Below, piece after piece: positions 3,123-64,000 of a DNA stretch of 64,000 nt. The notes under the pieces are model-generated. The model saw only the letters and a list, made by a program, of their open reading frames with translations, made no database searches and was not told the origin of the DNA. The position numbers and the translations under genes are program-made. Every line of letters begins with the position of its first letter. Position 1 is the first letter of the stretch. The stretch spans positions 1,218-65,217 of the forward strand of contig JAAZVP010000005.1 of NCBI GenBank assembly GCA_018623495.1. Direction: 5' to 3'. The DNA comes from Halothiobacillus sp. (lineage in GTDB: Bacteria > Pseudomonadota > Gammaproteobacteria > JAAZVP01).

Positions 3123-4070
3123 TCAGTCCTCCCAGAACCCGCGAATGGCGGCCACGCCCTGCCCGCCCGCGGCCACGGCGGTGTCGACATCAGCGCCGCC
3201 GAGACCGCCGAGGGCATAGACGGGCATGGCGGCCGCCTCGGCCAGGGCCGCGAATCCGTCCCAGCCCAGCGGCCTGGCACCGGGGTGGCTGGCGGTGGGC
3301 GCCACCGGCGAGACCAGGGCGAAATCCACCCCCAGCCGGGCAGCGCGTTCCAGCTCGCCGCGGTCGTGGCAGGCGGCCGAGACCCAGGCCAGGCCCTCGG
3401 GACGGGTCTCCCGGGCGGCCAGCCGGGCGCCGTCGAGATGCACGCCGTCGAAACCCAGTCGCCGCGCCGTGTCCGGGTCGCCGTTGAACAGGATGCGGCC
3501 CCCGGCCGCCTGCACGCGGGGGACGGCGATGCCCGCCGCCCACTCCGCGTCGATGCCCCGCGCCAGGCGCAGCTGGACCAGGCGGATGCCGTTGCCCAGG
3601 GCGCGCTCGATGCCGGCCGCCAGGCGCTCGCCGTCACCGTCGAAGTCGCCGGTGACCAGCAGCCGATCGGGCAGCGCGAGCGCGGCGAGGATCGGCCGGT
3701 TGGCCGCCGGCATCGAAAGCTCGCCCAGGGCGTCGCCGGCCACCCAGTCCAGCGGCTGCCCCTCGCGCCCGGTGGCCCGCCCGGTGAAGCCGTCGACCCG
3801 GTAGCAGTGGAGGATCACCCTGCGCTCGGGATAGCCATGGGACACGCGGATGAGGGGCGCGAGGGCACGGGCCTCCAGGCCCACCTCCTCGCGCAGCTCG
3901 CGCACCAGCGCCTCGCGGACCCCCTCGCCCGGTTCCACCTTGCCGCCGGGGAATTCCCAGCGACCGCCCTGGTGGGCCCGGTCGGGACGCCGGGCCACCA
4001 GCACCCGGCCCGCGCCGTCGCGGACCACCGCGACGGCGACGTGGATGGTCTCAGGTGCGGTATTCCGCAT
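3123..4070 (-). CDS. mutT: bifunctional Nudix hydrolase (MutT-like 8-oxo-dGTPase) / thiamine-phosphate synthase-like protein
   Basis: Start MRNTAPETIHVAVAVV opens a Nudix box (GGKVEPGEGVREALVRELREEVG). The C-terminal half resembles a ThiE/TMP-synthase TIM barrel (LVQLRLARG...VYALGGL). The start at 4070 overlaps argJ by 20 nt. The track's MPPPP start was rejected. Confidence 0.75.
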   Translation of the reverse strand: MRNTAPETIHVAVAVVRDGAGRVLVARRPDRAHQGGRWEFPGGKVEPGEGVREALVRELREEVGLEARALAPLIRVSHGYPERRVILHCYRVDGFTGRATGREGQPLDWVAGDALGELSMPAANRPILAALALPDRLLVTGDFDGDGERLAAGIERALGNGIRLVQLRLARGIDAEWAAGIAVPRVQAAGGRILFNGDPDTARRLGFDGVHLDGARLAARETRPEGLAWVSAACHDRGELERAARLGVDFALVSPVAPTASHPGARPLGWDGFAALAEAAAMPVYALGGLGGADVDTAVAAGGQGVAAIRGFWED

Positions 4071-5268
4071 TGATGGTGACGTAGTCGTAGGAGAGATCGG
4101 TGGTCCAGACGGTGGCGGCGGCATCGCCCCGGCCGAGCCGGATGCCGATGGTGATCGCCTCGCGGTCCATGACCGCCTGGCCGCGGGCCTCGGTGTAGTC
4201 CGCGGCCGGCTCGCCGCCGGCGACGATGGTCACCTCGTCGAGGCGGATGTCGACGCCGGCGACGTCGAGCCCGTCCAGCCCGGCGCGGCCCACCGCGGCG
4301 AGGATCCGCCCCCAGTTGGGGTCGGAGGCGAACAGCGCGGTCTTGACCAGCGGCGAGTGGGCCACGGTGAAGGCCACCTGGCGGCACTCGGCCTCGTCAC
4401 GGCCATCCTGCACGTCCAGGGTGACGAACTTGGTCGCCCCCTCGCCGTCGCGGATGATCGCCTGGGCCAGCTCGGTCATCACCTCGGCGATCACGGCCTC
4501 GAGGGCCTCGGCCGCCGGTGTGTCGGCGGTGATGGGCTCGCCCCCGGCACGGCCGGTGGCCGCGAGCACGCAGGCGTCGTTGGTGGAGGTGTCGCCGTCC
4601 ACGGTGATGCTGTTGAAGGAGCGGTCGGTGGTCCGGCGCAGGAGCGCGTCCAGCAGGGCCGGGGCCACCGGCGCGTCGGTGGCGACGAAGCCCAGCATGG
4701 TGGCCATGTCCGGGCGGATCATCCCCGAGCCCTTGGCGATGCCGGTGACGGTGACGGTGCGACCGTCGATCTCCACCCGGCGCGAGGCCCCCTTGGGCAG
4801 GGTGTCGGTGGTCATGATGGCCCGCGCCGCGTCCAGCCAGCCGTCCTCGCCCATGGCCTGCGCGGCGGCCTCGATACCGGCGTCGAGCCGGTCCATGGGC
4901 AGGCGCTGCCCGATCACGCCGGTGGAGAACGGCAGGACCTCGGCCGCCGCCACTCCCAGGCGCCCGGCGACCCGTTCGCAACTGGTGCGGGCGTCCTCCA
5001 GGCCGCGCCGGCCGGTGCCGGCGTTGGCGTTGCCGGCGTTGATCACCAGCGCGCGCGGCGCACGCCCGTCCAGGTGCTCGCGGGCCACGGTCACGGGGGC
5101 GGCGCAGAAGGCGTTGCGGGTGAACACCGCGCTCACCGTCGTGCCGGGCTCCAGCGCCAGCAGGGCGACATCCTCCGCCCCGCCCTTCTTGAGCCCCCCG
5201 GCACCGGCGCCCAGGCGCACCCCGGGCACGGGCAGCAGCGGACCGGGGGCCTTCAGTCCGACGGCCAT
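4051..5268 (-). CDS. argJ: bifunctional glutamate N-acetyltransferase / amino-acid acetyltransferase ArgJ
   Basis: 405 aa with the ArgJ signature including the autocatalytic ATML site (DMATMLGFVATDA). Confidence 0.9.
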   Translation of the reverse strand: MAVGLKAPGPLLPVPGVRLGAGAGGLKKGGAEDVALLALEPGTTVSAVFTRNAFCAAPVTVAREHLDGRAPRALVINAGNANAGTGRRGLEDARTSCERVAGRLGVAAAEVLPFSTGVIGQRLPMDRLDAGIEAAAQAMGEDGWLDAARAIMTTDTLPKGASRRVEIDGRTVTVTGIAKGSGMIRPDMATMLGFVATDAPVAPALLDALLRRTTDRSFNSITVDGDTSTNDACVLAATGRAGGEPITADTPAAEALEAVIAEVMTELAQAIIRDGEGATKFVTLDVQDGRDEAECRQVAFTVAHSPLVKTALFASDPNWGRILAAVGRAGLDGLDVAGVDIRLDEVTIVAGGEPAADYTEARGQAVMDREAITIGIRLGRGDAAATVWTTDLSYDYVTINAEYRT

Positions 5269-25497: not shown

Positions 25498-25555
25498 GCG
25501 AACCCCGCCCCCCGCGCCCCGCCGGGCCGCGGGATCGCGCCCCCGGACACGAAAA

Positions 25556-25588
25556 GGCCCGGCACCCTCGGGTGCCGGGCCTTTTTCC
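25556..25588. terminator. bidirectional rho-independent terminator (folE2 / bamC convergent)
   Basis: The stem ggcccggcaccc-tcg-ggtgccgggcc is flanked by AAAA on the left and TTTTT on the right, so it can terminate both strands. Confidence 0.7.
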
Positions 25589-25590
25589 GG

Positions 25591-25818
25591 TTCATCGCCC
25601 TTTGGCGTGGCATCCCTCGTCAGGACGCCGCAGAGGGCAATGTCTCTCGCCAGGGCGCCGGGGTGTCCGGATCGAAGGGGACTTCCTGTTGGCTCAGCGA
25701 TGGAAAGTGCGCTCGCGCACCCGGCAACCCCCGTAGGGGAAGGACAACGGCCCCGAAGGGGCGCGAAATCCCTGTCACGTCGCACATGCCTCCTGTTTCA
25801 CGGCAAAGTGCCGGTGAA
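25591..25818 (-). repeat. copy A of a ~230-bp non-coding repeat element (MITE-like / structured RNA candidate); minus strand matches copy B
   Basis: Its reverse complement aligns end-to-end at ~80% identity with 46526..46757. It has imperfect terminal inverted repeats (ttcaccggcactttgccgtg ... cacgccaaagggcgatgaa) and starts 3 nt after the terminator U-tract. No coding frame is conserved between the copies. Confidence 0.65.
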
Positions 25819-25853
25819 CCCTCTTGCTGCCCGACCCGCCGGGCGCGCCGCGG

Positions 25854-45986: not shown

Positions 45987-46466
45987 ATGCAAGTTGAAGA
46001 CAATTGTTGCGTCGCCATCGACTACACGGTGAAGGACGACGAAGGCACCGTGGTCGACACCTCCGAGGGCCGCGACCCGCTGGTCTATCTCCACGGCCAC
46101 AACAACATCGTCCCCGGCCTGGAGAAGGCCCTGGTGGGCAAGTCCGAGGGTGACGAGCTGGAAGTCAAGGTGGAGCCCGGCGAGGGCTATGGCGAGCGCG
46201 TCGAGGAACTGGTCCAGGACGTTCCCCGGGAGATGTTCCAGGGCGTCGACGACATCCAGCCCGGCATGCAGTTCCAGGCCCAGACTGCCAACGGCCCGCA
46301 GATCGTCACCGTCTCCGAGGTGGGCGACGAATCGGTCAAGGTCGACGGCAACCACCCCATGGCCGGCAAGACCCTGCACTTCGACGTCAAGGTCGCCAAC
46401 ATCCGCGAGGCCACCGAGGAAGAGATCGAGCACGGCCACGCCCACGAGATGGCCAGCAACGAATAG
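45987..46466 (+). CDS. slyD: FKBP-type peptidyl-prolyl cis-trans isomerase SlyD
   Basis: An FKBP/IF domain is followed by a His/Asp/Glu-rich metal-binding tail (EEEIEHGHAHEMASNE). Confidence 0.9.
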   Translation: MQVEDNCCVAIDYTVKDDEGTVVDTSEGRDPLVYLHGHNNIVPGLEKALVGKSEGDELEVKVEPGEGYGERVEELVQDVPREMFQGVDDIQPGMQFQAQTANGPQIVTVSEVGDESVKVDGNHPMAGKTLHFDVKVANIREATEEEIEHGHAHEMASNE

Positions 46467-46492
46467 GCTCGCTGTCATCGGCGATTCACGAA

Positions 46493-46522
46493 CCCGTGCC
46501 AGGATCGGCACGGGTTTTTTTA
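46493..46522 (+). terminator. rho-independent terminator of slyD
   Basis: The stem cccgtgcc-aggatc-ggcacggg is followed by TTTTTTTA. Confidence 0.75.
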
Positions 46523-46525
46523 TGT

Positions 46526-46757
46526 TTCTTCGCATGTTGCCGTGAAACAGGAGGCATACAAGCGACGTGACAGGGATTTCGCGCACCGTTTCGGGCCGAT
46601 GTTCTTCCTCTCCGTTTGTTGCCGGGTGCGCGAGGCCCTCTCTATATGCTTGCCCAGTGGAATCCCCCTTCGATCCGGGCACCCCGGCGCCTTGGCGAGA
46701 AGCATCGACCCCTGCTGCGTCCTGGTGAGGGGTGTCACGCGAAAGTGCGAAGAACGC
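46526..46757 (+). mobile_element. copy B of ~230-bp repeat element, flanked by perfect 8-bp direct repeat TTTTATGT (MITE-like insertion)
   Basis: The direct repeat ttttatgt sits at 46518..46525 and 46758..46765. The element has terminal inverted repeats (ttcttcgcat ... gtgcgaagaa) and is ~80% identical to the reverse complement of 25591..25818. It is inserted between the slyD terminator U-tract and the MFS start codon. Confidence 0.7.
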
Positions 46758-46761
46758 TTTT

Positions 46762-47991
46762 ATGTCCGAGAGCACCATGAGCGAAGCCACCGGACTGCGT
46801 GACTACTTCCTGGTCACGGGCAACTACTGGACCTTCACCGTCACCGACGGCGCCATCCGCATGCTGGTGGTGCTGTTCTTCCACCAGCTGGGCTACACCC
46901 CGCTGGAAATCGCCCTGCTGTTTCTCTTCTACGAGTTCTTCGGCGTGGTCACCAACATGGTGGGCGGCTGGCTGGGGGCGCGCATCGGCCTCAACCGCAC
47001 CATGCAGCTGGGCACCGGCCTGCAGATCGTCGCCCTGCTGCTGCTCACCGTGCCCGAGCCCTGGCTGTCGGTGGGCTACGTGATGTTCGCCCAGGCGCTC
47101 TCCGGGATCGCCAAGGACCTCAACAAGATGAGCGCCAAGAGCAGCGTCAAGGCGCTGGTGGCCGACGAGGACTCGCGGCTGTTCAAGTGGGTGGCCGTGC
47201 TCACCGGCTCCAAGAACGCGCTCAAGGGGGCCGGCTTCTTCGTCGGCGGGCTGCTGCTGGCGGTGGTGGGCTTTCGCTGGGCGCTGGTCATCCTGGCCGG
47301 TGCCCTGGCCGTCGCCCTGGTGGTCACCCTGCTCCTGCTGCCGACGGGGATGGGACGCTCGAAGGCCCGGCCACGGTTCAACCAGGTGTTTTCCAACACC
47401 CGCGAGATCAACTGGCTTTCCGCCGCCCGCTTCTTCCTGTTCGGTGCCCGCGACATCTGGTTCGTGGTCGCCCTGCCGGTCTTTCTCTACTCCCTGGGCT
47501 GGGACTTCTGGCAGGTGGGGGCCTTCCTCGCCCTCTGGGTGATCGGCTACGGCATCGTCCAGGCGGGCGCGCCGCGCTTTCTGAAAAACCCCCGCTCCCC
47601 GCGCGGGCCGGACGGGACCACCGCCCGCCTCTGGACCTTCGCCCTCGCCGCCATCCCCGCGGGCATCGCGCTGGGCATGATGGCGGGGCTGGATCCGGCG
47701 TGGGTGGTGGTCGCCGGGCTGGCGGTGTTCGGCGTGGTCTTCGCCATCAACTCCAGCGTCCACTCCTACCTGATCCTGGCCTACTCCGACCACGACAAGG
47801 TCGCCCTCAACGTGGGCTTCTACTACATGTCCAACGCCGGCGGTCGACTGGTGGGCACGGTGCTCTCGGGCTGGGTGTTCCAGGAATACGGCCTGGTGGG
47901 CTGCCTGTGGGGCTCGACGCTCTTCGTCCTCGCCGCGGGACTGCTTTCCCTCCCCCTGCCCGGGTCACGCCGGGCCGTGACACCGGCCTGA
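46762..47991 (+). CDS. MFS transporter (possible ArsJ-like organoarsenical efflux permease)
   Basis: 12-TM MFS protein. The ATG at 46762 lies inside the target-site duplication; the alternative ATG is at 46777. The ArsJ assignment rests on remembered family motifs (TDGAIRMLV, AKDLNKMSAKS), not on a search. Confidence 0.7.
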   Translation: MSESTMSEATGLRDYFLVTGNYWTFTVTDGAIRMLVVLFFHQLGYTPLEIALLFLFYEFFGVVTNMVGGWLGARIGLNRTMQLGTGLQIVALLLLTVPEPWLSVGYVMFAQALSGIAKDLNKMSAKSSVKALVADEDSRLFKWVAVLTGSKNALKGAGFFVGGLLLAVVGFRWALVILAGALAVALVVTLLLLPTGMGRSKARPRFNQVFSNTREINWLSAARFFLFGARDIWFVVALPVFLYSLGWDFWQVGAFLALWVIGYGIVQAGAPRFLKNPRSPRGPDGTTARLWTFALAAIPAGIALGMMAGLDPAWVVVAGLAVFGVVFAINSSVHSYLILAYSDHDKVALNVGFYYMSNAGGRLVGTVLSGWVFQEYGLVGCLWGSTLFVLAAGLLSLPLPGSRRAVTPA

Positions 47992-48107: not shown

Positions 48108-49067
48108 TCAGGCGGAGACCCGCAACAGGTGGACCCCGAACAGCCCGCGGGAGTCGGTCCAGAAGCCGTCCGGCTCGAAACCGGCCGCCCCGGCCAGCGA
48201 CTCGAACTCCGCGGGCGTGTACTTGTAGGAGTTCTCGGTGTGGATGGTCTCGCCGGGGGCGAACGCGAAGGCCCGGTGGCCCAGCCGGATGGCCTGCGGC
48301 GAGCGGGCCTCCAGGTGCATCTCCACCCGCCCGGCGTCGCGGTTGTAGAAGGCACGGTGGGCGAAACCCATCGTTTCGATCTCGGCGTCCAGTTCCCGCC
48401 GCATCCGCTCCAGCAGGTTGCGGTTGAAGGCCGCCGTGAGCCCGCGGGCGTCGTTGTAGGCGGCATCCAGGATGGCGGGATCCTTCTTGCGGTCCACGCC
48501 GATCAGCAGCCGGCCGCCCGTCCCCAGCTCGCCGGCGATCCGTGACAGCAGGGCCCGGGCCTCGACGGGCTCGAAGTTGCCGATGCTCGAACCGGGAAAG
48601 AAGGCCAGCCGGCCTTGCCCCCGGGCCTCGGGCAGGTGAAAGGGCCGGGTGAAGTCGGCGCACAGCGCGTGCACCTCCAGCCAGGGATGGTCCACGGCCA
48701 GCCGGCGGGTGGAATCGAGGAGGAAGTCGCCGGAGATGTCCAGCCCCGTGTAGCTGGCCGGTTGCAGGGCATCGAGCAGGATGCGGATCTTGCGGCTGGC
48801 CCCGCTGCCGAACTCCACCAGCCGGCAGTCGGTGCCGCAGTGCGCGGCGATCTCGCCGGCGTGGCGCTCGAGGATGGCGGTCTCGGTGCGGGTGGGATAG
48901 TACTCGGGCTGGCGGCAGATGGCGTCGAAGAGTTCCGACCCCCGCCGATCGTAGAAGAACTTGGGCGGGATGGCCCTGGGCTCGCGCGCCAGTCCCTCCT
49001 CGACGGCCTCGCCCAGCGAGGCGTCGGCCACCGCCACCGAGTGGACCTTCACTGCCGGTTCGCTCAT
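48108..49067 (-). CDS. egtD: L-histidine N-alpha-methyltransferase (ergothioneine biosynthesis)
   Basis: 319 aa with EgtD motifs (EFGSGASRKIR, HTENSYKY). Confidence 0.85.
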   Translation of the reverse strand: MSEPAVKVHSVAVADASLGEAVEEGLAREPRAIPPKFFYDRRGSELFDAICRQPEYYPTRTETAILERHAGEIAAHCGTDCRLVEFGSGASRKIRILLDALQPASYTGLDISGDFLLDSTRRLAVDHPWLEVHALCADFTRPFHLPEARGQGRLAFFPGSSIGNFEPVEARALLSRIAGELGTGGRLLIGVDRKKDPAILDAAYNDARGLTAAFNRNLLERMRRELDAEIETMGFAHRAFYNRDAGRVEMHLEARSPQAIRLGHRAFAFAPGETIHTENSYKYTPAEFESLAGAAGFEPDGFWTDSRGLFGVHLLRVSA

Positions 49068-50335
49068 CGGTCCTCCGCCAGCCGGATGCCGGCGAACTGC
49101 CAGCGCTCATGGGGGTAGAAGAAGTTGCGGTAGGTGGCCCGGATGTGGGACTCGGGGGTGGCGCAGGAACCGCCACGCAGCACCATCTGGCCGGACATGA
49201 ACTTGCCGTTGTACTCGCCGATGGCCCCCTCCGCCGGCCGGTAGCCCGGGTAGGCGGTGTAGGGGCTGGCGGTCCACTCCCAGACATCGCCGAAGAGCTG
49301 CACCAGCCCGTCGCCGGCGGCGACGGCCGGTTGCAGGTAGCGGCTCTCGACGAAGTTGCCCGCGACGGGGCGCGAGCCCGCGGCGTGCTCCCACTCGGCC
49401 TCGGTGGGCAGGCGTGCGCCGGCCCAGCTGGCGTAGGCATCCGCCTCGAAATGGCTCACGTGGCAGACCGGCGCACCGGGATCGAGCTCGCGCAGGCCCG
49501 CCAGCGTCATCTGGAACCAGCGCCCGTCGTGCTCCTCCCAGTAGAGCGGCGCCCGCCAGCCCTCCCGGCAGACGGCGGCCCAGCCGTCCGAGAGCCAGAA
49601 CTCGGGCCGCTGGTAGCCGCCGTCCCGCACGAACTCGAGGTACTCGGCATTGGTCACCGGCCGGCTGGCGAGGGCGAAGTCCTGGAGAAAGACCCGGTGG
49701 CGCGGGCCCTCGTTGTCGTAGGCGAACCCCTCGCCGGCGTGGCCGATCTCGACCACGCCCCCCTCGAACTCGCACCGGGTCATCGCCGGTGCCTCCCGCC
49801 TCGGCGGCGCCGGCAGCTGGCAGTAGGCGGGGCGCATGGGGTTCTGGCCGAAGATGTGCTTGATGTCGGTACAGAGCAGCTCCTGGTGCTGCTGCTCGTG
49901 GTTGAGGCCCAGCTCCACCCGCTCGGCCACGGCGGGCCAGTCGGCGTCGCGGCAATCGAGGATCAGCCATTCCATGGCCTGGTCGACGTGCAGGCGATAG
50001 TCGAAGATCTCGCGCACCGTCGGCCGCGCCAGCAACCCGCGGCGGGGCCGGGGATAGGGCGTGCCGTGGGTGACGTAATAGGAGTTGAACAGGTAGTCGA
50101 AATCGGGATGGAACGGCCGGTGGCCCGGCTGGAAGCGCCCCAGGAGGAAGGTCTCGTAGAACCAGGTGACGTGTGCCAGGTGCCACTTGGGCGGGCTCAC
50201 CGAGGGCATGGTCTGGATGACGTAGTCCTCCACCTCCAGCGGTCGGCAGAGGTTCTCGCTCGCCCTGCGCACGCGGCGATAGCGATCGAGCAGGGCCTCG
50301 CGGCCGCTCTCGGCCGCCTTCATCACGGGCTGCAT
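49064..50335 (-). CDS. egtB: ergothioneine biosynthesis sulfoxide synthase EgtB (DinB-like + FGE-sulfatase domains)
   Basis: 423 aa with an N-terminal DinB_2-like domain bearing iron-binding His residues and a C-terminal FGE-like domain (WEWT). It overlaps the egtD start by 4 nt. Confidence 0.85.
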   Translation of the reverse strand: MQPVMKAAESGREALLDRYRRVRRASENLCRPLEVEDYVIQTMPSVSPPKWHLAHVTWFYETFLLGRFQPGHRPFHPDFDYLFNSYYVTHGTPYPRPRRGLLARPTVREIFDYRLHVDQAMEWLILDCRDADWPAVAERVELGLNHEQQHQELLCTDIKHIFGQNPMRPAYCQLPAPPRREAPAMTRCEFEGGVVEIGHAGEGFAYDNEGPRHRVFLQDFALASRPVTNAEYLEFVRDGGYQRPEFWLSDGWAAVCREGWRAPLYWEEHDGRWFQMTLAGLRELDPGAPVCHVSHFEADAYASWAGARLPTEAEWEHAAGSRPVAGNFVESRYLQPAVAAGDGLVQLFGDVWEWTASPYTAYPGYRPAEGAIGEYNGKFMSGQMVLRGGSCATPESHIRATYRNFFYPHERWQFAGIRLAEDR

Positions 50336-52744: not shown

Positions 52745-53170
52745 TCAGGCCCCGGCGATCCAACCCTTCACCCGCTCGCGGATGGCGTCGCGGATCCGGC
52801 GGACCTGCTCGAGTTTCTCCTCCTGCGTCCCCTCGACCCTGGAGGGGTCTTCGAAAGGCCAGCGCAGGGTCCGGCGCACGCCCGGAAAGACCGGGCACTT
52901 TTCCTCCACGCCCCGCTCGCAGACGTAGATCACGTAGTCGTACAGCCGTCCCTCCCGGAAGAACTGCATGATGCTGTCGGCCCTGGCATCGCTGAGATCG
53001 ATGCCCTCCTCGCGCATCACCTGGACCACGAGCGGGTGAATGTCGCGGGGTTGCAGGCCCGCGCTCTCCGCCTCGAAGGCCTCCCCGCCCAGGGCATCGA
53101 GGTAGGCCTCGGCCATCTGGCTGCGGGCACTGTTGTGGATGCAGACGAAGAGCACGCGCGTGGCCCCCAT
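52745..53170 (-). CDS. arsC: arsenate reductase (LMW-PTP family, thioredoxin-coupled)
   Basis: The start MGATRVLFVCIHNSARSQMAEAY is the CX5R P-loop of LMW-PTP ArsC. Confidence 0.85.
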   Translation of the reverse strand: MGATRVLFVCIHNSARSQMAEAYLDALGGEAFEAESAGLQPRDIHPLVVQVMREEGIDLSDARADSIMQFFREGRLYDYVIYVCERGVEEKCPVFPGVRRTLRWPFEDPSRVEGTQEEKLEQVRRIRDAIRERVKGWIAGA

Positions 53171-53199
53171 GAAAAGACTCCTCCCGGAACGAACCGGCT

Positions 53200-53225
53200 T
53201 GTATATTCGGAAAAACGCATATACA
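53200..53225. promoter_or_regulatory. candidate ArsR operator (inverted repeat TGTATAT-N12-ATATACA)
   Basis: Perfect 7-bp inverted repeat in the 82-bp divergent arsC/arsR intergenic region. Confidence 0.4.
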
Positions 53226-53252
53226 GTCTACCGCATATCCGGTTAAGGGAAT

Positions 53253-53606
53253 ATGTCCGTGCAAGCCCATCGCCTCTTCCACCTGCTCGCCGATCCCACT
53301 CGCCTGCGCCTGACCCTGCTGCTCGCCAGCCAGGGCCGGCTCTGCGTCTGCGAACTGCAACACGCCATCGACGAACCCCAGCCCAAGATCTCGCGCCACC
53401 TCGCCGCGATGCGCGACGCGGGCCTGGTGGCCGGCGAGCGCCACGGGCAGTGGGTCCACTACCGGATCCATCCCGACCTGCCGGACTGGGCCCGGGCCGT
53501 GATCGAGCGCACGCTCGCCGGCGTTGGCGAACAGCCGCCCTTCGCCGACGACCGCCGGACCCTGGCCGACATGCCCAACCGCCCCGGCGCCGCGTGCACC
53601 GCCTGA
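53253..53606 (+). CDS. arsR: ArsR/SmtB-family metalloregulator
   Basis: The HTH region carries the metal-binding CVC motif (LCVCELQHAIDEPQPKISRHL). Confidence 0.85.
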   Translation: MSVQAHRLFHLLADPTRLRLTLLLASQGRLCVCELQHAIDEPQPKISRHLAAMRDAGLVAGERHGQWVHYRIHPDLPDWARAVIERTLAGVGEQPPFADDRRTLADMPNRPGAACTA

Positions 53607-53632
53607 ACCCCCGGAAAGGAGCCATCCCGATC

Positions 53633-54562
53633 ATGCCTCGATCCATCACCGCCCTGCTGGGTGTTGTCACCCTCCTCGCCGCCACTGCCGCGGCGGCCCA
53701 TGAACCGACCCCCGAGCGGGTGACCGACGGGGTCTACGCCCTGGTGGGACCGATCACCGGCCGCACCGCGGAAAACGACGCCCTCAACAACAACCTGGGG
53801 TTCGTGGTCACCGAGACCGGCGTGGTACTCATCGACTCCGGCGCATCGACACTGGGCGCGCAGAAGATCGATGCCGCCATCGACACGGTCACCGACAAAC
53901 CCGTGACCCACGTGATCAACACCGGCAGCCAGGACCACCGCTGGCTGGGCAACGGCTATTTCCGCGACCAGGGCGCCGAGATCATCGCCCTGGCCCGCAC
54001 CGTGGCGACCCAGAAGCGCTTCGCCGAACCGCACATGGACCGCCTGGAAGGCATTCTAGGCGAGCGGCTCGAGGGCACCACGCCCGTCCATGCCGCCGAT
54101 CCCATCGACGCCGACCGCGCTACCTTCGAGATCGGCGGCACCCAATTCCAGCTGCTCTTTTTCGGCGATGCCCACTTCCCGGGCGATGCCGTGGTCTGGC
54201 TGCCGAAACAAGAAACCGTATTCACCGGCGACCTGGTCTACGTCGACCGGATGCTGGGCATCCATCCCTTCTCGGATGTCGTCAGCTGGCGCCGGGCCTT
54301 CCACGCCATGGAAAAGCTCGAGCCCGAACACGTGGTGCCCGGCCACGGCGGCGTCTGCGACCTGGAACAGGCCCGATCCGAGACCGGCGACTACCTGGAC
54401 TTCCTGGTCACCGAGGTGCGCGACGCCGTGGCGGACTTCCAGGGCCTGCAGACCACCGTGGACGAGCTCGCCGACGCCCCGCGTTTCGAACACCTCGAAC
54501 ACTTCGATTCCTGGCACCGCACCAACATCAACCGCGCCTTTCTCCAGCTGGAGATGGAGTGA
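53633..54562 (+). CDS. periplasmic MBL-fold metallo-hydrolase
   Basis: A signal peptide is followed by a beta-lactamase-like fold. The metal motif is degenerate (THVINTGSQDHRWLGN instead of HxHxDH). The SD ggaaaggag lies upstream of ATG 53633. Confidence 0.65.
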   Translation: MPRSITALLGVVTLLAATAAAAHEPTPERVTDGVYALVGPITGRTAENDALNNNLGFVVTETGVVLIDSGASTLGAQKIDAAIDTVTDKPVTHVINTGSQDHRWLGNGYFRDQGAEIIALARTVATQKRFAEPHMDRLEGILGERLEGTTPVHAADPIDADRATFEIGGTQFQLLFFGDAHFPGDAVVWLPKQETVFTGDLVYVDRMLGIHPFSDVVSWRRAFHAMEKLEPEHVVPGHGGVCDLEQARSETGDYLDFLVTEVRDAVADFQGLQTTVDELADAPRFEHLEHFDSWHRTNINRAFLQLEME

Positions 54563-54565
54563 TCC

Positions 54566-55522
54566 ATGTTCACGGCCCTCGCCGACAGCCTGGTCTACGG
54601 CCTGCTCGGCCTGACCGAGGGCGACCGCCTGGCCGATGCCCTCCACTTCTTCGTGATGGACACGGCCAAGATCTTCGTCCTGCTGGTGGCCGTGATCTAC
54701 GTGATGGGTCTCTTGCGGGCGCTGGTCAGCCCCGAGAAGGTACGCGGCTACGTGCGCGGCAAGCCGCCCTGGCTGGCGCGGACGCTGGCCATCGGCCTGG
54801 GCGCGGTGACCCCCTTCTGCTCCTGCTCCTCGGTGCCGCTGTTCATCGGCTTCGTGGAGGCGGGCATCCCGCTGGGGGTCACCTTCTCCTTTCTGATCGC
54901 CAGCCCCATGATCAACGAGATCGCCGTGGTCCTGCTGGCCGGCATCCTGGGCTGGGAGATCGCCGCACTCTACGTGGCCGCGGGGCTCACCGTGGCCTGG
55001 GTCGGGGGCATCGTCATGCAGCGCTTTCGCCCCGAGCGCTGGGTGGAGGACTACGTCTGGAAGATCCGGATGGGCGAGACCCATGAACAGGCACCGGATA
55101 CCTCCTGGGCCGGCCGCCATCGTTTCGCCATGGCCGAGGTGCGCGAGATCCTGCGCCGGGTGTGGAAATGGGTGCTCATCGGCATCGCCGTGGGGGCGCT
55201 GTTCCACGGCTTCGTGCCGGGCGACTGGGTCACCGAGCACCTGGGCGGCGAGGGCAACTGGCTGGCCGTGCCCGGCGCGGTGCTGCTGGGCATCCCCCTG
55301 TATGCCAACGCCACCGGGGTGATCCCCGTGGCCGAGGCCATGCTGGGCAAGGGCGTGGCCATCGGCACCACCCTGGCCTTCATGATGAGCGTGGCCGCGC
55401 TGTCCCTTCCCGAGATGCTCATCCTGCGCAAGGTCATCCGCTGGCCGGCCCTGGCGCTGTTCGCCGGTGTACTGGCCGTGGCCTTCGTGCTGGTGGGCTG
55501 GAGCTTCAACCTGATCACCTGA
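54566..55522 (+). CDS. arsP: ArsP-type organoarsenical efflux permease
   Basis: Multi-TM permease carrying the TPFCSCSSVP motif characteristic of ArsP. Confidence 0.75.
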   Translation: MFTALADSLVYGLLGLTEGDRLADALHFFVMDTAKIFVLLVAVIYVMGLLRALVSPEKVRGYVRGKPPWLARTLAIGLGAVTPFCSCSSVPLFIGFVEAGIPLGVTFSFLIASPMINEIAVVLLAGILGWEIAALYVAAGLTVAWVGGIVMQRFRPERWVEDYVWKIRMGETHEQAPDTSWAGRHRFAMAEVREILRRVWKWVLIGIAVGALFHGFVPGDWVTEHLGGEGNWLAVPGAVLLGIPLYANATGVIPVAEAMLGKGVAIGTTLAFMMSVAALSLPEMLILRKVIRWPALALFAGVLAVAFVLVGWSFNLIT

Positions 55523-55532
55523 GGAAACCGCA

Positions 55533-55916
55533 ATGACCGACACACCGCCACTCAATCCCGCCATCCGCGACATCGCCGGGCTCGCGGCCTCCATCGCCAT
55601 CCGCTGCCCCTCCATGACCCACACCCTGGCCGAGCGCCTGCGCGGCCACGGCCTGCCCGAGGGCCAGATCCGCGAGGTGGTCGAGGCCGCGCGGGCGGTC
55701 AGCCACGAGGCACGGATCCGCGGCGAGTCGATGCTCGACGCCGTGCTCGCCGGCGAAAGCCCCACCACCTGCATGCAGTCCATGGACGACACCGCGTCCG
55801 GCGGCTGTTGCCAGAGCGAGGATGGCTGCAACGACGCGGCCGCGTCCGGCGGCTGCCGTGACGAGGCGGCGAGCGACGGTTGCTGCGGCGAAACCCGAAC
55901 CGAAACCTGCTGCTAG
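55533..55916 (+). CDS. AhpD/CMD-like domain protein with Cys-rich C-terminal tail
   Basis: 127 aa with the C-terminus GGCCQSEDGCNDAAASGGCRDEAASDGCCGETRTETCC. Confidence 0.5.
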   Translation: MTDTPPLNPAIRDIAGLAASIAIRCPSMTHTLAERLRGHGLPEGQIREVVEAARAVSHEARIRGESMLDAVLAGESPTTCMQSMDDTASGGCCQSEDGCNDAAASGGCRDEAASDGCCGETRTETCC

Positions 55917-55929
55917 AGGAACGAGACCC

Positions 55930-56163
55930 ATGAAGACCATCCAGGTACTGGGCAGCGGCTGCGCCCGCTGCGAGAGCACCTACCGGCTGATCGACGAGCT
56001 CGCCCGGGAACAGGGCGTGGAAGTCGAGCTGAAAAAGGTCGAGGACATCGCCGAGATCATGGCCATGGGCGTGATTTCCACGCCGGGCGTGGCCATCGAC
56101 GGCGAGGTGGTGCACACGGGCTCGGTCCCCGACCGCAAGCTCGTCGCCGACTGGCTGGCATGA
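55930..56163 (+). CDS. thioredoxin-family small redox protein (CxxC)
   Basis: The start [21 protein letters not shown] is a TIGR00412-like redox-active disulfide protein, of the kind common in ars operons. Confidence 0.7.
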
Positions 56164-56176
56164 GGGGGCCCGGGCA

Positions 56177-57184
56177 ATGACCGTCAAGATCGGCATCAAC
56201 GGCTTCGGCCGCATGGGCCGCCTGGGCTTCCGGGCCGGCTGGGACCATCCCGCCTTCGACGTCATCCACGTCAACGAGACCAGCGGGGACGCGGCCACCG
56301 CCGCCCACCTGCTGGAGTTCGACTCGGTCCACGGCCGCTGGCCGCGGATGATCGAGGCGGACAGCGCGGGCTTCTCCGTCGAGGGCCGCCACGTGGGCTT
56401 CTCGAGCTTTGCCACGCCCGCGGAGATCCCCTGGGCGGAACGGGGCGTGGAGATCGTGGTGGAGGCCTCCGGCGCCTTCGTCACCCCCGCGACCCTGGCC
56501 GGCCACTTCGAGCGCGGCGCGCGCAAGGTGGTGGTGGCCGCACCGGTCAGGGAAGACGCGCTCAACATCGTCATGGGGGTCAACGACCACCTCTACGACC
56601 CGGCGCGCCACGACCTGGTCACCGCTGCCTCCTGCACCACCAACTGCCTGGCACCGGTGGTGGCGGCCCTCAAGGACACCGTGGGCATCGAGCGGGGCAC
56701 CATGACCACGCTGCACGACGTCACCAACACCCAGCGCATCGTCGACAAGCCCCACAAGGACCTGCGCCGGGCCCGCTCGGCCAGCGAGTCGCTGATCCCC
56801 ACCACCACCGGCTCGGCGCGGGCCATCGGCAGGATCTTCCCCGAGCTCGACGGCCGGCTGAACGGCCTGGCCGTCCGGGTGCCGCTGCAGAACGCCTCGC
56901 TCACCGACTTCGTCTTCCAGGCCCCGCGGCCGGTGACCGCCGAGGCGGTCAACGCCCACCTGCGCGCGGCGGCCGAGGGGCCGCTCGCCGGCATCCTGGG
57001 CTTCGAGACCCGGCCGCTGGTCTCGGTGGACTACCGCGACGACCCCCGCTCGGGGATCGTGGACGCCCCCTCCACCATGATCATCGACGACCGGCTGGTG
57101 AAGGTGCTGGCCTGGTACGACAACGAGTGGGGCTATGCCAACCGGCTGATGGAGCTCACGGCCAAGGTGGCGCAAGCCCTCTGA
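56177..57184 (+). CDS. glyceraldehyde-3-phosphate dehydrogenase, divergent ArsJ-associated type
   Basis: 335 aa with [10 protein letters not shown] and the catalytic SCTTNCLAP. It is a divergent GAPDH inside the ars cluster. Confidence 0.8.
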
Positions 57185-57237: not shown

Positions 57238-57828
57238 TCAGCCGGGGAGGTCGGCCGGTTCGGCACAGCGATCGAGATGCGCGCGGAAGGCCTCGAAAGC
57301 GGCCTCGGCGGCCGCCGCGGCGGGGGCATGGTCGGCCGGGCCGCAGAGGCCGTCGGCAAGGTCCCAGAAGGCGCGCCAGTGCCGGCCCACGCCGTCGCCG
57401 GCAAAGAAGCGCACGGGCGTGTCCTCGCCCAGCACCCGGCGCACGTGGCGGGCGATCATCGCCCCGCCGAAGCGCGATCCCTCGAGCACGTAGAGCGCCC
57501 CCACCAGCCCGGCGGGGGTCGCCAGGCCCGGTGTGCGGATGCCGCTGTCGTCGCTCGGCTCACGCCCCAGGGCGGCCAGGTCGGCCCGCAGGTCGGCGAC
57601 CCGGCGGGTGAAGCCGTACCCGGGCGCCAGGGCGTCGATGGCCCCGGCGACCTCGGCCTCCAGCCGAGCCTGCGGGGCGTGCAGCGCGGCCAGGGCGCGG
57701 CCGTAGGCGGCCTCGTCCAGCGCGTCGGTCACCAGGGGCGCGAGCAGCGCATGGTGGTCCAGCGCCTCGTGGGCCGGGGCCGTCGCCGCTCGCAGGTGGC
57801 GGGCCAGGGGGGATTCTCCGGGTCTCAT
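57238..57828 (-). CDS. heme oxygenase (BphO-like, biliverdin-producing)
   Basis: The N-terminal LARHLRAATAPAHEALDHHALLAPL region is the heme oxygenase proximal-His motif. Its start overlaps the phytochrome stop (ATGA). Confidence 0.75.
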   Translation of the reverse strand: MRPGESPLARHLRAATAPAHEALDHHALLAPLVTDALDEAAYGRALAALHAPQARLEAEVAGAIDALAPGYGFTRRVADLRADLAALGREPSDDSGIRTPGLATPAGLVGALYVLEGSRFGGAMIARHVRRVLGEDTPVRFFAGDGVGRHWRAFWDLADGLCGPADHAPAAAAAEAAFEAFRAHLDRCAEPADLPG

Positions 57829-59165
57829 GGGCGCATTTCCCGTTTCAGCAGATCACGCAGGCGCAGCAGCTTGAGGCGAGCCTCGGTGGGCCAGGGGCGG
57901 CTGTGGCCGAAACGCTGCTCCACCCATTTCTCGAAGGAACGCCGGGGGGCGATCCCCAGCCGCCCGTCATGATACTCCACCGGCTTGTCCGGGTTGCCGC
58001 CCCAGGCCACCTCGTAGACCTGCTCGCCGCGGTGGAGATAGATGCGTGCCCCGTCCGGGGCACCGGGCGTGCCGAGCTCGACGGCCGCCACCCCCGCCAT
58101 GGCCGACAGCCCCAGCCCGTCGACGTGGCGATTCAGCTGATCGGTGGCCAGCACCAGTTCCGGGTGTTCGCCGAACCAGCGGTCCAGGGCGCGAACGGAA
58201 TCGTCGTCCACCTCGCTGCCCACGCGGTGGATGCGGTCGCCGGTGCAGAGCACGGCGCCGTCGGCATCGAAGAGCTCGGCCAGCCGCGCACCGATCTCGC
58301 CCCAGGCCTCCCCCAGGTCGCCCGCCCGGTGCAGCCCCTGGCGGATTTCGTCGAACTGCCGGTCGAGGCCGTCGAGCATCTCCATGCGCTCGCGGGTCTG
58401 CCAGTCGCGCAGCTCGAGGTTGAAGAACCCGGCGAGGTGACTGACGCGCTGCAGGAGCGCGGTGGGCAGCCGCCGGGGCCGCAGGCCGTGACAGGCCACC
58501 AGCGCCACCAGCTCGTTGCCGATGACGATGGGCAACGACAACGAGGCCCGCAACCCCATGTTCTGCATGTAGACCTTGTGCACCGGCGAGACGCTGCGCA
58601 GGTCGGTATGGGCCAGGTCGGGCGGCCCCTCGTCCACGCCCAGCACCGGCACGTCCTCGGCGCGGCAGTCGGAGATGGTCCGCCAGGGGTTTTCCACGTA
58701 GAGGCGACGGGCGATCATGGGGATGTCGCTGGCGGGGAAACGCAGGCCCAGGTAGCTCCCGGTGGCCGCCTCGCCCCGCGACTCGGCGAGCACGGTGCCG
58801 TCACCGCCCTCCACGAACTGGTAGTACATCACCCGGTCGAAACCGGTGAGCTCGCGGACGCGCTCCACCAGCGCCTGGCGGCGCTCGGCCAGGTCCGCGG
58901 CATCACCCAGGGCCCGGTACTCCCCCGCCGACCAGCGCTCCACGCCCTCCGTGGCCGCCAGGATCTCGATCGTGAAGCCCCCGTCCCGCGCCCGGCACGC
59001 CACCAGTTCGACGTCACCGTGACGGCCTTCCAGGGCCGTTTCCAGCACCAGCCGGCTGCCGGGCGGGTCGCCCAGCTCCCGCAGGGGATCGGCGAGCTCG
59101 GCCGGCAGCGGCGCGCCGAGGATCGCACCCGGCTCGTGGGCCAGCCAGTCGGCGAGGTTGGTTGC
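57825..59165 (-). CDS. phytochrome photosensory module (PAS-GAF-PHY), 3' part of CheB-CheR::phytochrome gene; no kinase output domain
   Basis: The GAF signature RELTGFDRVMYYQFVEGGDGTVLAESR...LGLRFPASDIPMIARRLY is followed by a PHY domain ending SFEKWVEQRFGHSRPW. The frame is open up to 59402, but the N-terminal 75 codons are low-complexity and overlap the CheBR frame. Confidence 0.7.
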   Translation of the reverse strand, partial: ATNLADWLAHEPGAILGAPLPAELADPLRELGDPPGSRLVLETALEGRHGDVELVACRARDGGFTIEILAATEGVERWSAGEYRALGDAADLAERRQALVERVRELTGFDRVMYYQFVEGGDGTVLAESRGEAATGSYLGLRFPASDIPMIARRLYVENPWRTISDCRAEDVPVLGVDEGPPDLAHTDLRSVSPVHKVYMQNMGLRASLSLPIVIGNELVALVACHGLRPRRLPTALLQRVSHLAGFFNLELRDWQTRERMEMLDGLDRQFDEIRQGLHRAGDLGEAWGEIGARLAELFDADGAVLCTGDRIHRVGSEVDDDSVRALDRWFGEHPELVLATDQLNRHVDGLGLSAMAGVAAVELGTPGAPDGARIYLHRGEQVYEVAWGGNPDKPVEYHDGRLGIAPRRSFEKWVEQRFGHSRPWPTEARLKLLRLRDLLKREMRP

Positions 59166-60675
59166 CGTCGGTGTCGCAGAGCGCGGCGGTGGCGCCGAAC
59201 CGGGCGGCGAGCGCCTCGAGCAGTTGCTCGAGGCTGTCGGCACGTCGCCGGACCACGCCGCCGCGGGCGGGTGTCGAGGACACCGGCGGCAGGTCGCGGC
59301 TGTCACCGCGCTTGCGGAACAGCCGCTCGCGCCGGTCGGCCACCTCGAACAGCGACTCGCCCTGGCCGATGCCCTCGGATCGCCCGAGAAACAGGTGTCC
59401 ACGCCGGTTCAGGGCGAAATGGAAGCGCTGCAACACCCGCGCCTGGAGCCGGGCGTCGAAATAGATCAGCACGTTGCGGCAGGTGATCAGGTCGGTGCGC
59501 AAAAACGGCGGGTCGTCCACCAGGTTGTGCCGGGCGAACACGATCATGTCGCGCAGGCGCTTGCCCACCTCGTAGTGCCGATCGGCGGGATGGAAATAGC
59601 GCTCGATGCAGTCCGGCGGCAGGGCCTGCAGGGCGGCCGCGGGATACAGGCCGCGCCGGGCGGTATCGAGCGCGTCCTCGTCGATGTCGGTGGCGAACAC
59701 CTGGATGGTCTGGCCCAGGCCCTGCTCGCGCTGGGCCTCGGCGAACAGGATGCCGATGGAGTAGGCCTCCTCGCCGGTGGCGCAGCCGGCCACCCAGACC
59801 CGGATGGAGCCGGCTTCGCCCTTCTCCCGGCAGATGCCGCGGACCGTCTCGGCGAGCGCGTCGAAGGCCTCGGGATCGCGGAAGAAGGCGGTCACCGAGA
59901 TCAGGATGTCGCGGGCCAGGCGGTCGAGCTCCTCGGGGTGTGCCTCGACCCAGTCGGCGTAGCGGCGGACATCGGTATTGCCGGTGGCCACCATCCGCCG
60001 GCGGATCCGCCGCGCCAGGGTGCTGGGCTTGTAGCCCGAGAAGTCGATGTCGCGCCGGCGGCGCACCCGCTCCACCAGGCGCTCCATCAGCTCGGCGGGC
60101 AGTTCGTCCCGCCCGGGGGGCCGCATCCGGGCGAACGCCCCCAGGCGCTGCCCGAGCTCCACCGGGGCGAGGACGTGGTCGGCCACGCCCGCCTCGATGG
60201 CCGACAGCGGCATGCCCGTGTACTTGGCCGAGTCCGGCGCCTGCGCCAGGGTGAGGCCGCCGGCGGCCTGGATGGCACGCAGGCCGGCGGTGCCGTCCGA
60301 GCCGGTCCCCGAGAGCACCACGCCGATGGCCGACTCCCCGGCCTCCGCCGCCAGGGAGATGAAGAACTCGTTGACCGAGGGCTTGGGGACCACCTCGGGA
60401 TCGGCGTTGACCAGGCGGAAGCGGCCCTCGCGGATCAGCGCCTTGGAACGCGCCGGCACCACGTACACCGTGCCCGGCCGCGGGGTGTCGCCGTCGACCA
60501 TCTCCTGCACCGCGAGGGCGGTGTCGCGGGAGAGGATGTCCACCAGCATGCTGCGATGGTCGGGGGAGAGATGCTGGAGGACCACGTAGGCGAGCGGCCA
60601 GTCGGGCTCGAGGGTCCCCACCAGCTTGCCCAGGGCCTCCAGGCCGCCGGCCGAGGCGCCGATGCCCACCACCAT
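59014..60675 (-). CDS. CheB methylesterase-CheR methyltransferase fusion (5' part; frame discontinuity ~59150-59170 into phytochrome frame)
   Basis: Start VMVVGIGASAGGLEAL (ATG at 60675) opens a CheB catalytic domain, followed by a CheR SAM-methyltransferase domain (VWVAGCATGEEAYSIG). The last ~50 codons before the stop at 59014 are low-complexity. Phytochrome PAS homology continues in the +1 frame. Confidence 0.7.
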   Translation of the reverse strand: MVVGIGASAGGLEALGKLVGTLEPDWPLAYVVLQHLSPDHRSMLVDILSRDTALAVQEMVDGDTPRPGTVYVVPARSKALIREGRFRLVNADPEVVPKPSVNEFFISLAAEAGESAIGVVLSGTGSDGTAGLRAIQAAGGLTLAQAPDSAKYTGMPLSAIEAGVADHVLAPVELGQRLGAFARMRPPGRDELPAELMERLVERVRRRRDIDFSGYKPSTLARRIRRRMVATGNTDVRRYADWVEAHPEELDRLARDILISVTAFFRDPEAFDALAETVRGICREKGEAGSIRVWVAGCATGEEAYSIGILFAEAQREQGLGQTIQVFATDIDEDALDTARRGLYPAAALQALPPDCIERYFHPADRHYEVGKRLRDMIVFARHNLVDDPPFLRTDLITCRNVLIYFDARLQARVLQRFHFALNRRGHLFLGRSEGIGQGESLFEVADRRERLFRKRGDSRDLPPVSSTPARGGVVRRRADSLEQLLEALAARFGATAALCDTDGNQPRRLAGPRAGCDPRRAAAGRARRSPAGAGRPARQPAGAGNGPGRPSR

Positions 60676-60850
60676 CACCGGCCCGTCCGGCGCGTTGTCC
60701 GATTCCGTCTCGCTCAACCCGGCTCCCCCGTGCGTGTTCGCCCGCCCTGCTCCGGATGCCCCTGTCTTTCTATTATGCAAACCCTGTACATGCAAGCGGG
60801 AGCAACCCGGCAAGCCGTGGGGAGGCGGGGTCCCCGGCCCGGGCAAGGCA

Positions 60851-63800: not shown

Positions 63801-64000
63801 ACCACGCACCCGGTGAAGGTCTCGCCCGCCGCCAGGCAGGCCCGCATCCGGTCGAGTTCGGCGCGGTCGGTACCCGGCCCCTGGAACAGGCGGGGACTGG
63901 CACCGATGAGCTCGTCACGCCGGTAGCCGCTCATGCGGCAGAAGGCCTCGTTGACGTAGGTGATCCGGGGTCCGGGAGCCTCCAGCTCCGCGGTCGTGGC
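60851..64000 (-). CDS. multi-PAS sensor diguanylate cyclase/phosphodiesterase (GGDEF variant SGDEF + EAL); N-terminus beyond window
   Basis: More than 1027 aa with several PAS/PAC repeats, then RVSGDEFAVLL (GGDEF domain) and EALVRW...EVTE (EAL domain). The frame stays open to the window end, so the gene is partial. Confidence 0.85.
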   Translation of the reverse strand, partial: ATTAELEAPGPRITYVNEAFCRMSGYRRDELIGASPRLFQGPGTDRAELDRMRACLAAGETFTGCVVNYRKDGSPYLLECKALPLPGASGRPEAYVAIQRDLTPQARAERFGQTLLDSLGEGVFGIDTAGDFTFLNPRALALLGYDDECELLGRNSHETIHVAPDGSAHDGGACPVHWVMRTGESLDAWEDRFYRADGSGFPAEVFVSPVRAPGGEVTGAVAVFNDISERLRSRRALEDERRRLEQVIAGTRAGTWQWNVQTGELIINDRWKTLLGYAADALEPVSVSTWRELGHPEDLERAEALLQRHFGGELDVYECELRMRHAHGHWVWMLARGRVIEWQADGRPLWMAGTHLDVTERRRADEARRRTEARYRALFEGISDAVFLHPFRESGFAPFVEVNEVACRWLGYSREELLGMTVADISDPEDARFFGSAEERRRLKESGRRVFEATLRNRAGERLPVEISARIFEFDGEPMDVALVRDISQRKQHETRLLQAAAVFDNTDEGIMITDVDGRITGVNEAFTRITGYPEAEVLGRRPSMLRSGHHDEAFYQAMWASLSATDHWQGEVWNRRRNGEAFPEWQTISAVRDRAGRLTHYVSVFSDISRIKQTEDELRHLAHHDPLTGLPNRMLFQERLEHALERGHCSGERVAVLYCDLDRFKAINDSFGHPAGDGVLRQVAARFRERLRPDATVARVSGDEFAVLLEAIEGPAAAERVAGELLACLRRPLEVDEIELYTTASIGIAISPNDGLAAETLLKNADAALFKAKDRGRNTFGLFHPELVETSRERVLLDSAMRRALERGEFEVHYQPLVDLADGRTVGAEALVRWRDPGRGLVSPGQFIPLAEETGLIVPLGEWVLREACRQMQHWRAAGRSLEYVSVNLAGRQLENRSLALVVEQVLEETGLPATALELEVTETGIVQDSQVVHLLRAFRELGVCLAVDDFGTGYSSLARLKDMPIDKLKVDRSFVGGIPADPSDVAITRAVIAMARNLGLAIIAEGVETATHADFLRQAGCPLGQGYFYSRPLPAGAFEDWLAGPRS

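Follow-up and report, generated by a model that had tools for sequence, protein, structure and literature searches.

A 232-bp intergenic repeat with imperfect terminal inverted repeats, probably a lineage-restricted MITE-type element, beside bamC and arsJ in a GC-rich gammaproteobacterium

The window, i.e., the whole 64-kb stretch of DNA that was analysed, has a GC content of 70%, and the ORFs scanned in it correspond to ordinary chromosomal genes (RND efflux, LysR, AhpC, ffh, htpG, lpxC, an ars cluster and others). The Pfam scan of these ORFs detected no transposase, reverse transcriptase or phage gene, in line with the first-pass annotation, which had noted the absence of transposase and reverse transcriptase genes nearby. 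Two intergenic spacers of the window harbour a copy of the same repeat, in inverted orientation. The features of these two spacers are the following.

25550-25583, bidirectional: intrinsic terminator shared by bamC/copy A (minus strand) and folE2 (plus strand), from the terminator scan and from partial Rfam matches limited to the terminator
25588-25819, minus strand: copy A of the 232-nt repeat, between the bamC stop codon (25854) and the bidirectional terminator common with folE2, delimited by alignment to copy B
46490-46517, plus strand: intrinsic terminator of a slyD-like FKBP gene, made of an 11-bp stem and then a T-run, and directly adjacent to copy B on its upstream side
46526-46757, plus strand: copy B of the 232-nt repeat, with the slyD-like FKBP terminator on its left and the start codon of arsJ (46777) on its right
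46777-47991, plus strand: arsJ, encoding an organoarsenical efflux MFS transporter (Pfam MFS_1; homologues named ArsJ by NCBI)

Copy A starts 34 nt past the stop codon of bamC, a gene of the NlpB/DapX family with dapA upstream, and ends 4-5 nt before the strong bidirectional terminator, so that its downstream side consists of this terminator and of a convergent gene. Copy B ends 19 nt before the ATG of arsJ, whose product of 404 amino acids is a 100% match to the database protein P0001. Past the slyD terminator, copy B is the only DNA that precedes arsJ, and arsJ must therefore be transcribed from within or through this copy.

The first-pass annotation had described two inverted, look-alike copies of approximately 230 bp with roughly 80% identity, and this description holds. 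The reverse complement of positions ~25590-25820 aligns with positions ~46524-46756 over 221-232 nt (MAFFT and blastn), with ~80% identity (183 of 230 ungapped columns; blastn E = 2e-50) and indels of 2, 1, 1 and 1 nt, and every shared block listed earlier is present in this alignment. In a whole-window repeat scan, the A/B pair is by far the strongest repeat of the 64 kb, well above the GC-rich background, and two 17-nt blocks that were tested, GTGACAGGGATTTCGCG and GTTGCCGGGTGCGCGAG, have exact matches in copies A and B only. The flanks of the two copies are unrelated and the homology ends sharply on either side, indicating a discrete unit rather than a segmental duplication; a duplication including the flanks, the alternative raised by the first-pass annotation, does not fit these boundaries. 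We also rejected an invertible segment of 21 kb, since the flanks are unrelated and the gene order on either side matches that of relatives.

The family turned out not to be limited to two copies, as had been proposed. A search with an nhmmer profile built from A and B, which covered all sequences retrieved for this analysis, detected a third, diverged copy just outside the window (copy C; E = 5.6e-14, model positions 3-72), at positions 7816-7887 of L018, a Logan contig from the same organism whose first 6835 nt match window positions 6835-1 at 99.9%. Copy C, which is oriented as copy A and is found 981-1052 nt before the first position of the window, is located 93 nt downstream of nlpD (local gene order surE-pcm-VTT-nlpD). 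It is partial, the end of the contig cutting it 72 nt in, and its identity over these common 72 nt amounts to 73% with A and 83% with B. Blocks 1 and 2, identical in A and B, contain six of its substitutions with no compensating pattern, implying that these blocks are not strictly required. The family is thus made of at least three old, dispersed copies in ~48 kb, present in both orientations and all intergenic. In gammaproteobacteria, the gene after nlpD is usually rpoS; the break of the contig inside copy C, in the spacer that follows nlpD, may be due to the repeat or to low coverage.

Relatives of the repeat were sought much more widely. A blastn search of plasmids and phages with copy B, in a setting for distant similarity, yielded no match. 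The sequence CGTGACAGGGATTTCGCG gave eight chance matches, limited to an 18-20-mer, in 185,579 species genomes, among which the source species is apparently not represented; CCTTCGATCCGGRCACCCCGGCG had no match in the JGI metagenomes, the pattern GAAACAGGAGGN{8,20}GACAGGGATTT had five chance matches in the same metagenomes, and two blocks searched in IMG/VR produced chance matches only, these scans of genomes, metagenomes and IMG/VR requiring exact patterns that diverged relatives could escape. No parent insertion sequence with matching ends was detected among the window ORFs (Pfam), plasmids or phages, and the literature contained nothing relevant to the sequence blocks of the repeat.

Imperfect terminal inverted repeats (~20 bp) mark both ends of each full copy.

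25803-25820, minus strand: 5' (left) arm of the terminal inverted repeats of copy A, with the sequence GGTTCACCGGCACTTTGC; over 18 nt its complementarity to 25589-25606 is 72%
25589-25606, minus strand: right (3') terminal inverted-repeat arm of copy A, from the inverted-repeat search, duplex energy and alignment of the termini
46526-46548, plus strand: left arm of the terminal inverted repeats of copy B, with the sequence TTCTTCGCATGTTGCCGTGAAAC; over 23 nt its complementarity to 46732-46754 is 78%
46732-46754, plus strand: right terminal inverted-repeat arm of copy B, from the inverted-repeat search and duplex energy

The end-to-end duplex has an energy of -23.5 kcal/mol in copy A, where 1.3% of shuffles are as good and no internal window does better, and of -24.6 kcal/mol in copy B, where 0.2% of shuffles are as good (p ~0.002). 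The best pairing partner of each end is the opposite end, tied in copy B with one internal window. The consensus GTTCWTCGCMYTTTGSCGTG is common to all five available termini (the left ends of A, B and C, and the right ends of A and B once reverse-complemented), and the similarity between them ends at GTTC. The termini can be placed only to within 1-3 nt, copy B being devoid, at its left end, of the G or GCG present at the other termini.

Short repeats are found immediately outside these ends.

46518-46525, plus strand: TTTTATGT on the left side of copy B, one half of an exact 8-bp direct repeat, forming the tail of the slyD terminator T-tract
46758-46765, plus strand: right copy of the same 8-bp direct repeat, TTTTATGT, abutting copy B
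25820-25827, minus strand: candidate decayed left copy of a target duplication at copy A, GCAAGAGG, 6/8 identical to GAAAAAGG, suggestive only
25580-25587, minus strand: GAAAAAGG, possible right-hand half of a target duplication at copy A, also the A-tract of the bidirectional terminator

The sequence TTTTATGT occurs twice in the 64-kb window, both strands considered, and both occurrences flank copy B; the expected number is 0.05 and none of 100 shuffles gave two. The direct repeat is exact at copy B alone. The 6/8 repeat at copy A was retained after several registers had been examined, and its register is one base off that of copy B at the left end; the right end of copy C is missing. In both A and B, the DNA comprised between the flanking repeats measures exactly 232 nt. 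An A/T run of at least 4 nt is present within 10 nt of the terminus in four of the five flanks, vs. 0.8% of 10-nt windows in this 70% GC sequence: copy B is located in the tail of the slyD terminator T-tract, and copy A in the A-tract flanking the bidirectional terminator towards bamC. If copy B was removed together with one copy of its direct repeat, arsJ would begin 12 nt past the tail of the slyD terminator, a spacing suggesting that the insertion is incidental rather than designed.

A site without the element is observed in the closest relative for BamC (L002), which exhibits the same dapA-bamC-terminator-folE2 arrangement. There, bamC is followed successively by 45 nt, an A-tract, a hairpin, a T-tract and folE2, with AAAAAAAG directly before the terminator stem, in a comparison that involves a distant relative, the two BamC proteins being just 51% identical. 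In L001, the closest relative for ArsJ (84% identical), no copy of the element was found in 10.7 kb.

The non-coding character of the repeat, already proposed from the sequence, is supported by several analyses. The GC3 values of all six frames of A and B range from 0.52 to 0.70, vs. 0.76-0.98 for the window ORFs picked as genes, and the reading frames shift between copies through indels, between A and B and again in C; for instance, the 86-aa frame that begins at GTG 46542 in copy B is reduced to VKQEACAT followed by a stop in copy A, i.e., to eight codons, as stated in the first-pass annotation. None of eight ORFs tested from inside the copies is present among 15 billion predicted proteins (exact look-up), a concatenated six-frame translation of copy A retrieved nothing at E <= 10 from 5.8 billion proteins, and phmmer with the 86-aa ORF against 1.84 billion representatives retrieved just two unrelated tandem-repeat proteins. 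A candidate for a family of small proteins is an ORF of 52-53 aa starting from the GTG in GACGTGACAGGG, 10-12 nt past an AGGAGG motif, which is open in both A and B and encodes in both an MTGISR N-terminus and a C-terminal PFDPxTPAPWRE...AAS motif. However, +1 and -1 indels put its 27 middle codons into frames that differ between A and B, its in-frame C-terminal part contains three synonymous vs. five non-synonymous differences (hand count on the A/B alignment), its GC3 is 0.65-0.70 vs. more than 0.9 for typical genes here, and copy C has AGGGGG instead of AGGAGG as well as another frame shift. With the database searches also failing to reveal its exact sequences or any relatives, a small-protein gene is hardly credible, and we rejected it on the frame and GC3 evidence.

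Taken together, these features make the element probably a lineage-restricted, non-autonomous DNA repeat of the MITE type, 232 bp long, non-coding and bounded by imperfect terminal inverted repeats. It is smaller than ~500 bp, has no coding capacity, has inverted repeats at its ends and is absent from the corresponding site of a relative. Between the two possibilities put forward by the first-pass annotation, a mobile element or an sRNA family, the former is thus the better supported, because of the terminal inverted repeats, the 8-bp repeat at copy B, the insertion in terminator A/T tracts, the empty site, the third copy and the lack of a shared promoter; the sRNA part found no positive support. 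Some observations nevertheless count against a MITE, among them the number of documented copies (three), the failure to detect a transposase or a parent insertion sequence, the ambiguous termini, and a target duplication that is exact at copy B alone. Active MITEs usually conserve their ends best, whereas here the terminal arms are only 72-78% complementary and some internal blocks surpass them in conservation between A and B. The mismatches between A and B are clustered (p = 0.005 for the four longest identical runs summed, p = 0.011 for dispersion), with variable segments between blocks of identity that measure 21, 23, 17 and 36 nt (two transitions occur in the 36-nt block); this hints at a constraint on internal blocks that would not be predicted for a dead transposon decaying neutrally. 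Finally, one terminal position changes in concert on both arms (A-U vs. U-A between A and B), as predicted for a closing RNA stem, and the likeness of the termini across copies would also be expected for any conserved closing stem.

The pairing ends and the clustered conservation would also fit the main alternative, namely that the copies are structured non-coding RNAs, acting in trans as sRNAs or in cis as a UTR module, with the ends as closing stem and functional internal blocks; copy A would then stop at the strong terminator located just behind it and copy B would be the leader of arsJ. The two ends pair in each full copy, A, B and C are each oriented like the upstream gene, and a few internal hairpins still pair through one- or two-sided changes (CGCC-AAAG-GGCG vs. 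CGCG-AAAG-UGCG, and AGGGAU/GUCCUU vs. AGGGAU/GUUCUU), an observation that, like the one at the terminal position, is anecdotal with two sequences and a third of another. We nevertheless consider such an RNA family unlikely. The Rfam 15 search of the 64 kb yielded no match at gathering thresholds, be it to a tRNA, an rRNA, a riboswitch or another family, which answers the possibility, raised by the first-pass annotation, of a known RNA family; at E <= 10, copies A and B gave only terminator-like partial matches and a chance-level match to GlsR17_miR2 (E = 2, on the opposite strand, inside copy B). The single-copy folds have non-significant z-scores of -1.3 and -1.8, the minimum-free-energy folds of A and B differ, and the A/B consensus fold (Alifold), compared with column-shuffled alignments, has a z-score of -0.8 for the sense strand and a better one (-2.3) for the antisense strand. 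The regions upstream of A, B and C have no sequence in common, and a scan of A and B detected no sigma-70-like site, so that, if the ends pair in RNA, transcription must come from foreign upstream promoters, as is known for MITE, REP and ERIC-type repeats, unlike sRNA gene families. A proper terminator follows copy A but is missing between copy B and arsJ, and only copy B directly precedes a gene, as would be required of a riboswitch or another cis-acting leader. The uncompensated changes of copy C in blocks 1 and 2, the exact direct repeat around copy B, which an RNA family leaves unexplained, and the absence of the element at syntenic sites of relatives also argue against it. In particular, a Csr/Rsm-type sponge (CsrB, RsmY/Z) was rejected: GGA occurs 5 and 3 times vs. 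shuffle means of 4.0 and 3.6 (p = 0.36 and 0.73), ANGGA is not enriched either, the upstream flanks are unrelated, and copy C changes two of the three conserved GGA sites (AGGAGG to AGGGGG and ACAGGGA to AUCGGGA).

A combination of both ideas, a mobile structured-RNA module that would spread as DNA and be kept by the host since its transcript acts in cis, appears distinctly unlikely. In such a module, the closing hairpin, the U-run at copy B (GAACGC-UUUU) and the conserved blocks would constitute an attenuator, insulator or stabiliser, which would gate arsJ (its partner gapdh being lost at this place, with no other upstream region) and cap the bamC and nlpD transcripts. It is very unlikely that the repeat is instead a regulatory cassette acting at the DNA level, i.e., a protein-binding or promoter-bearing module copied to several loci and now used as promoter or operator of arsJ. 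The position of copy B, alone upstream of arsJ past the slyD terminator, and the long identical blocks, which could be binding sites, would fit such a cassette, but there is no sigma-70-like promoter in or near A or B, copy A runs into a terminator and has no gene beyond it, the blocks are altered in copy C, and the arsJ spacing expected after excision again makes the insertion look incidental; sigma-54 and sigma-70 promoter readings of blocks 1-3 were rejected after inspection by eye and by scan. As for inert relics of an old duplication or gene conversion, neither mobile nor functional, the age of the copies (73-83% identical) and the failure to find anything related elsewhere are compatible with them, but they are highly improbable in view of three dispersed copies in differing orientations with sharp common bounds, inverted-repeat ends, a flanking 8-bp repeat and unrelated flanks, a pattern that segmental duplication does not yield.

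For a MITE-type element, one can propose that a transposase encoded elsewhere copied the repeat into target sites rich in A/T, which here belong to the tracts of intrinsic terminators, and that each insertion duplicated ~8 bp of the target, the exact repeat at copy B being the model for what may be a general rule. Once inserted, the element would be transcribed with its neighbours, copy A in the 3' UTR of bamC and copy B in the 5' leader of arsJ, and its two ends would pair in the transcript to form a long hairpin, with possible effects on termination or on the stability of the mRNA.

Several known MITEs, such as the Correia elements (CREE/NEMIS) of Neisseria, RUP of Streptococcus pneumoniae, Nezha and Chunjie, owe their mobility to transposases of insertion sequences, supplied in trans. 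Transcripts of adjacent genes often include them, their ends then forming a long RNA hairpin. The repeat described here resembles them in being small (100-400 bp in these families) and non-coding, with terminal inverted repeats, candidate target duplications and diverged intergenic copies either way round. It differs from them by having no known cognate insertion sequence, just three documented copies, imperfectly complementary ends and some internal blocks that are better kept than these ends. Furthermore, Correia and RUP duplicate TA, whereas the present element apparently duplicates 8 bp of A/T-rich target. A second group of comparison includes bcr1 of the Bacillus cereus group and the ERIC/IRU and YPAL repeats of enterobacteria, which are likewise dispersed, foldable, intergenic and located beside A/T-rich motifs. 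These repeats of 130-170 bp are transcribed within UTRs and can alter mRNA stability, and bcr1 is flanked by TTTAT. Our element has no sequence similarity with them, comes from another phylum or family and is longer; moreover, ERIC and YPAL are palindromic over most of their length, whereas just the terminal ~20 bp pair here. Paralogous sRNAs, such as Qrr1-5, RsmX/Y/Z, PrrF1/2 and the Bartonella Brt RNAs, are also intergenic non-coding units of 100-250 nt, and copy A has, as they do, a strong terminator. However, these families possess a conserved promoter or activator box upstream and one terminator per copy, whereas the upstream flanks are unrelated here, copy B has no terminator, GGA is not enriched and no Rfam model matches.

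If the repeat is indeed a MITE, it would be one more lineage-specific element of this type, from the MAG of an uncultured gammaproteobacterium, and would challenge no current knowledge. Its copies should be masked as repeats in annotations rather than recorded as sRNA or small-protein genes, and they may break assemblies, a Logan contig ending in copy C. The apparent targeting of terminator A/T tracts is of interest in a genome in which these tracts are among the few A/T-rich targets. Since copy B represents the whole upstream region of arsJ, with a closing hairpin followed by a U-run, it could also influence the expression of arsenic efflux. Independently, a part of the slyD terminator hairpin, GTGCCAGGATCG (46496-46507), is 92% complementary over 12 nt to CGATCCGGGCAC (46671-46682) in copy B, a block that is nearly invariant between A and B; this could be due to chance in GC-rich DNA or could correspond to an alternative pairing competing with the slyD terminator.

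The surroundings of arsJ present additional features. In L001 (positions 3282-4476), arsJ is translationally coupled to an upstream gapdh gene, in the order FKBP-gapdh-arsJ. In the corresponding part of the window (46466-46777), gapdh is absent, and just the slyD terminator and copy B precede arsJ; we considered and rejected the possibility that copy B is a remnant of the missing gene, as it has no similarity to the gapdh of L001 or to its leader. An ars-type cluster is present ~5-9 kb downstream of arsJ (52745-57184), encoding an ArsC-like low-molecular-weight phosphatase, ArsR, an ArsP permease, a thioredoxin-like protein and a GAPDH. The N-terminus of this GAPDH resembles that of the arsJ-linked GAPDH of L001, so that the partner of arsJ seems to have been relocated rather than lost. 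Within this cluster, the arsR-arsP spacer (53607-54565, ~960 nt) contains no picked gene, the ORF filter being set at 80 aa or more and gene-like GC3, and no Rfam match. Downstream of arsJ, on the minus strand (48108-50335), a gene encoding an EgtD-like histidine-specific methyltransferase (Methyltransf_33) adjoins one encoding an EgtB-like protein with DinB_2 and FGE-sulfatase domains, which suggests a pathway of the ergothioneine type for a thiol-histidine; this arrangement is kept in L001. Further downstream, genes encoding a heme oxygenase, a GAF-PHY phytochrome and a CheB-CheR fusion follow each other on the minus strand (57238-60846), next to one encoding a PAS-GGDEF-EAL protein (60851-63934). 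The longest ORFs of this series overlap at 59014-59402, and the start of the longest phytochrome ORF is probably wrong, the Logan annotation giving a protein of 407 aa.
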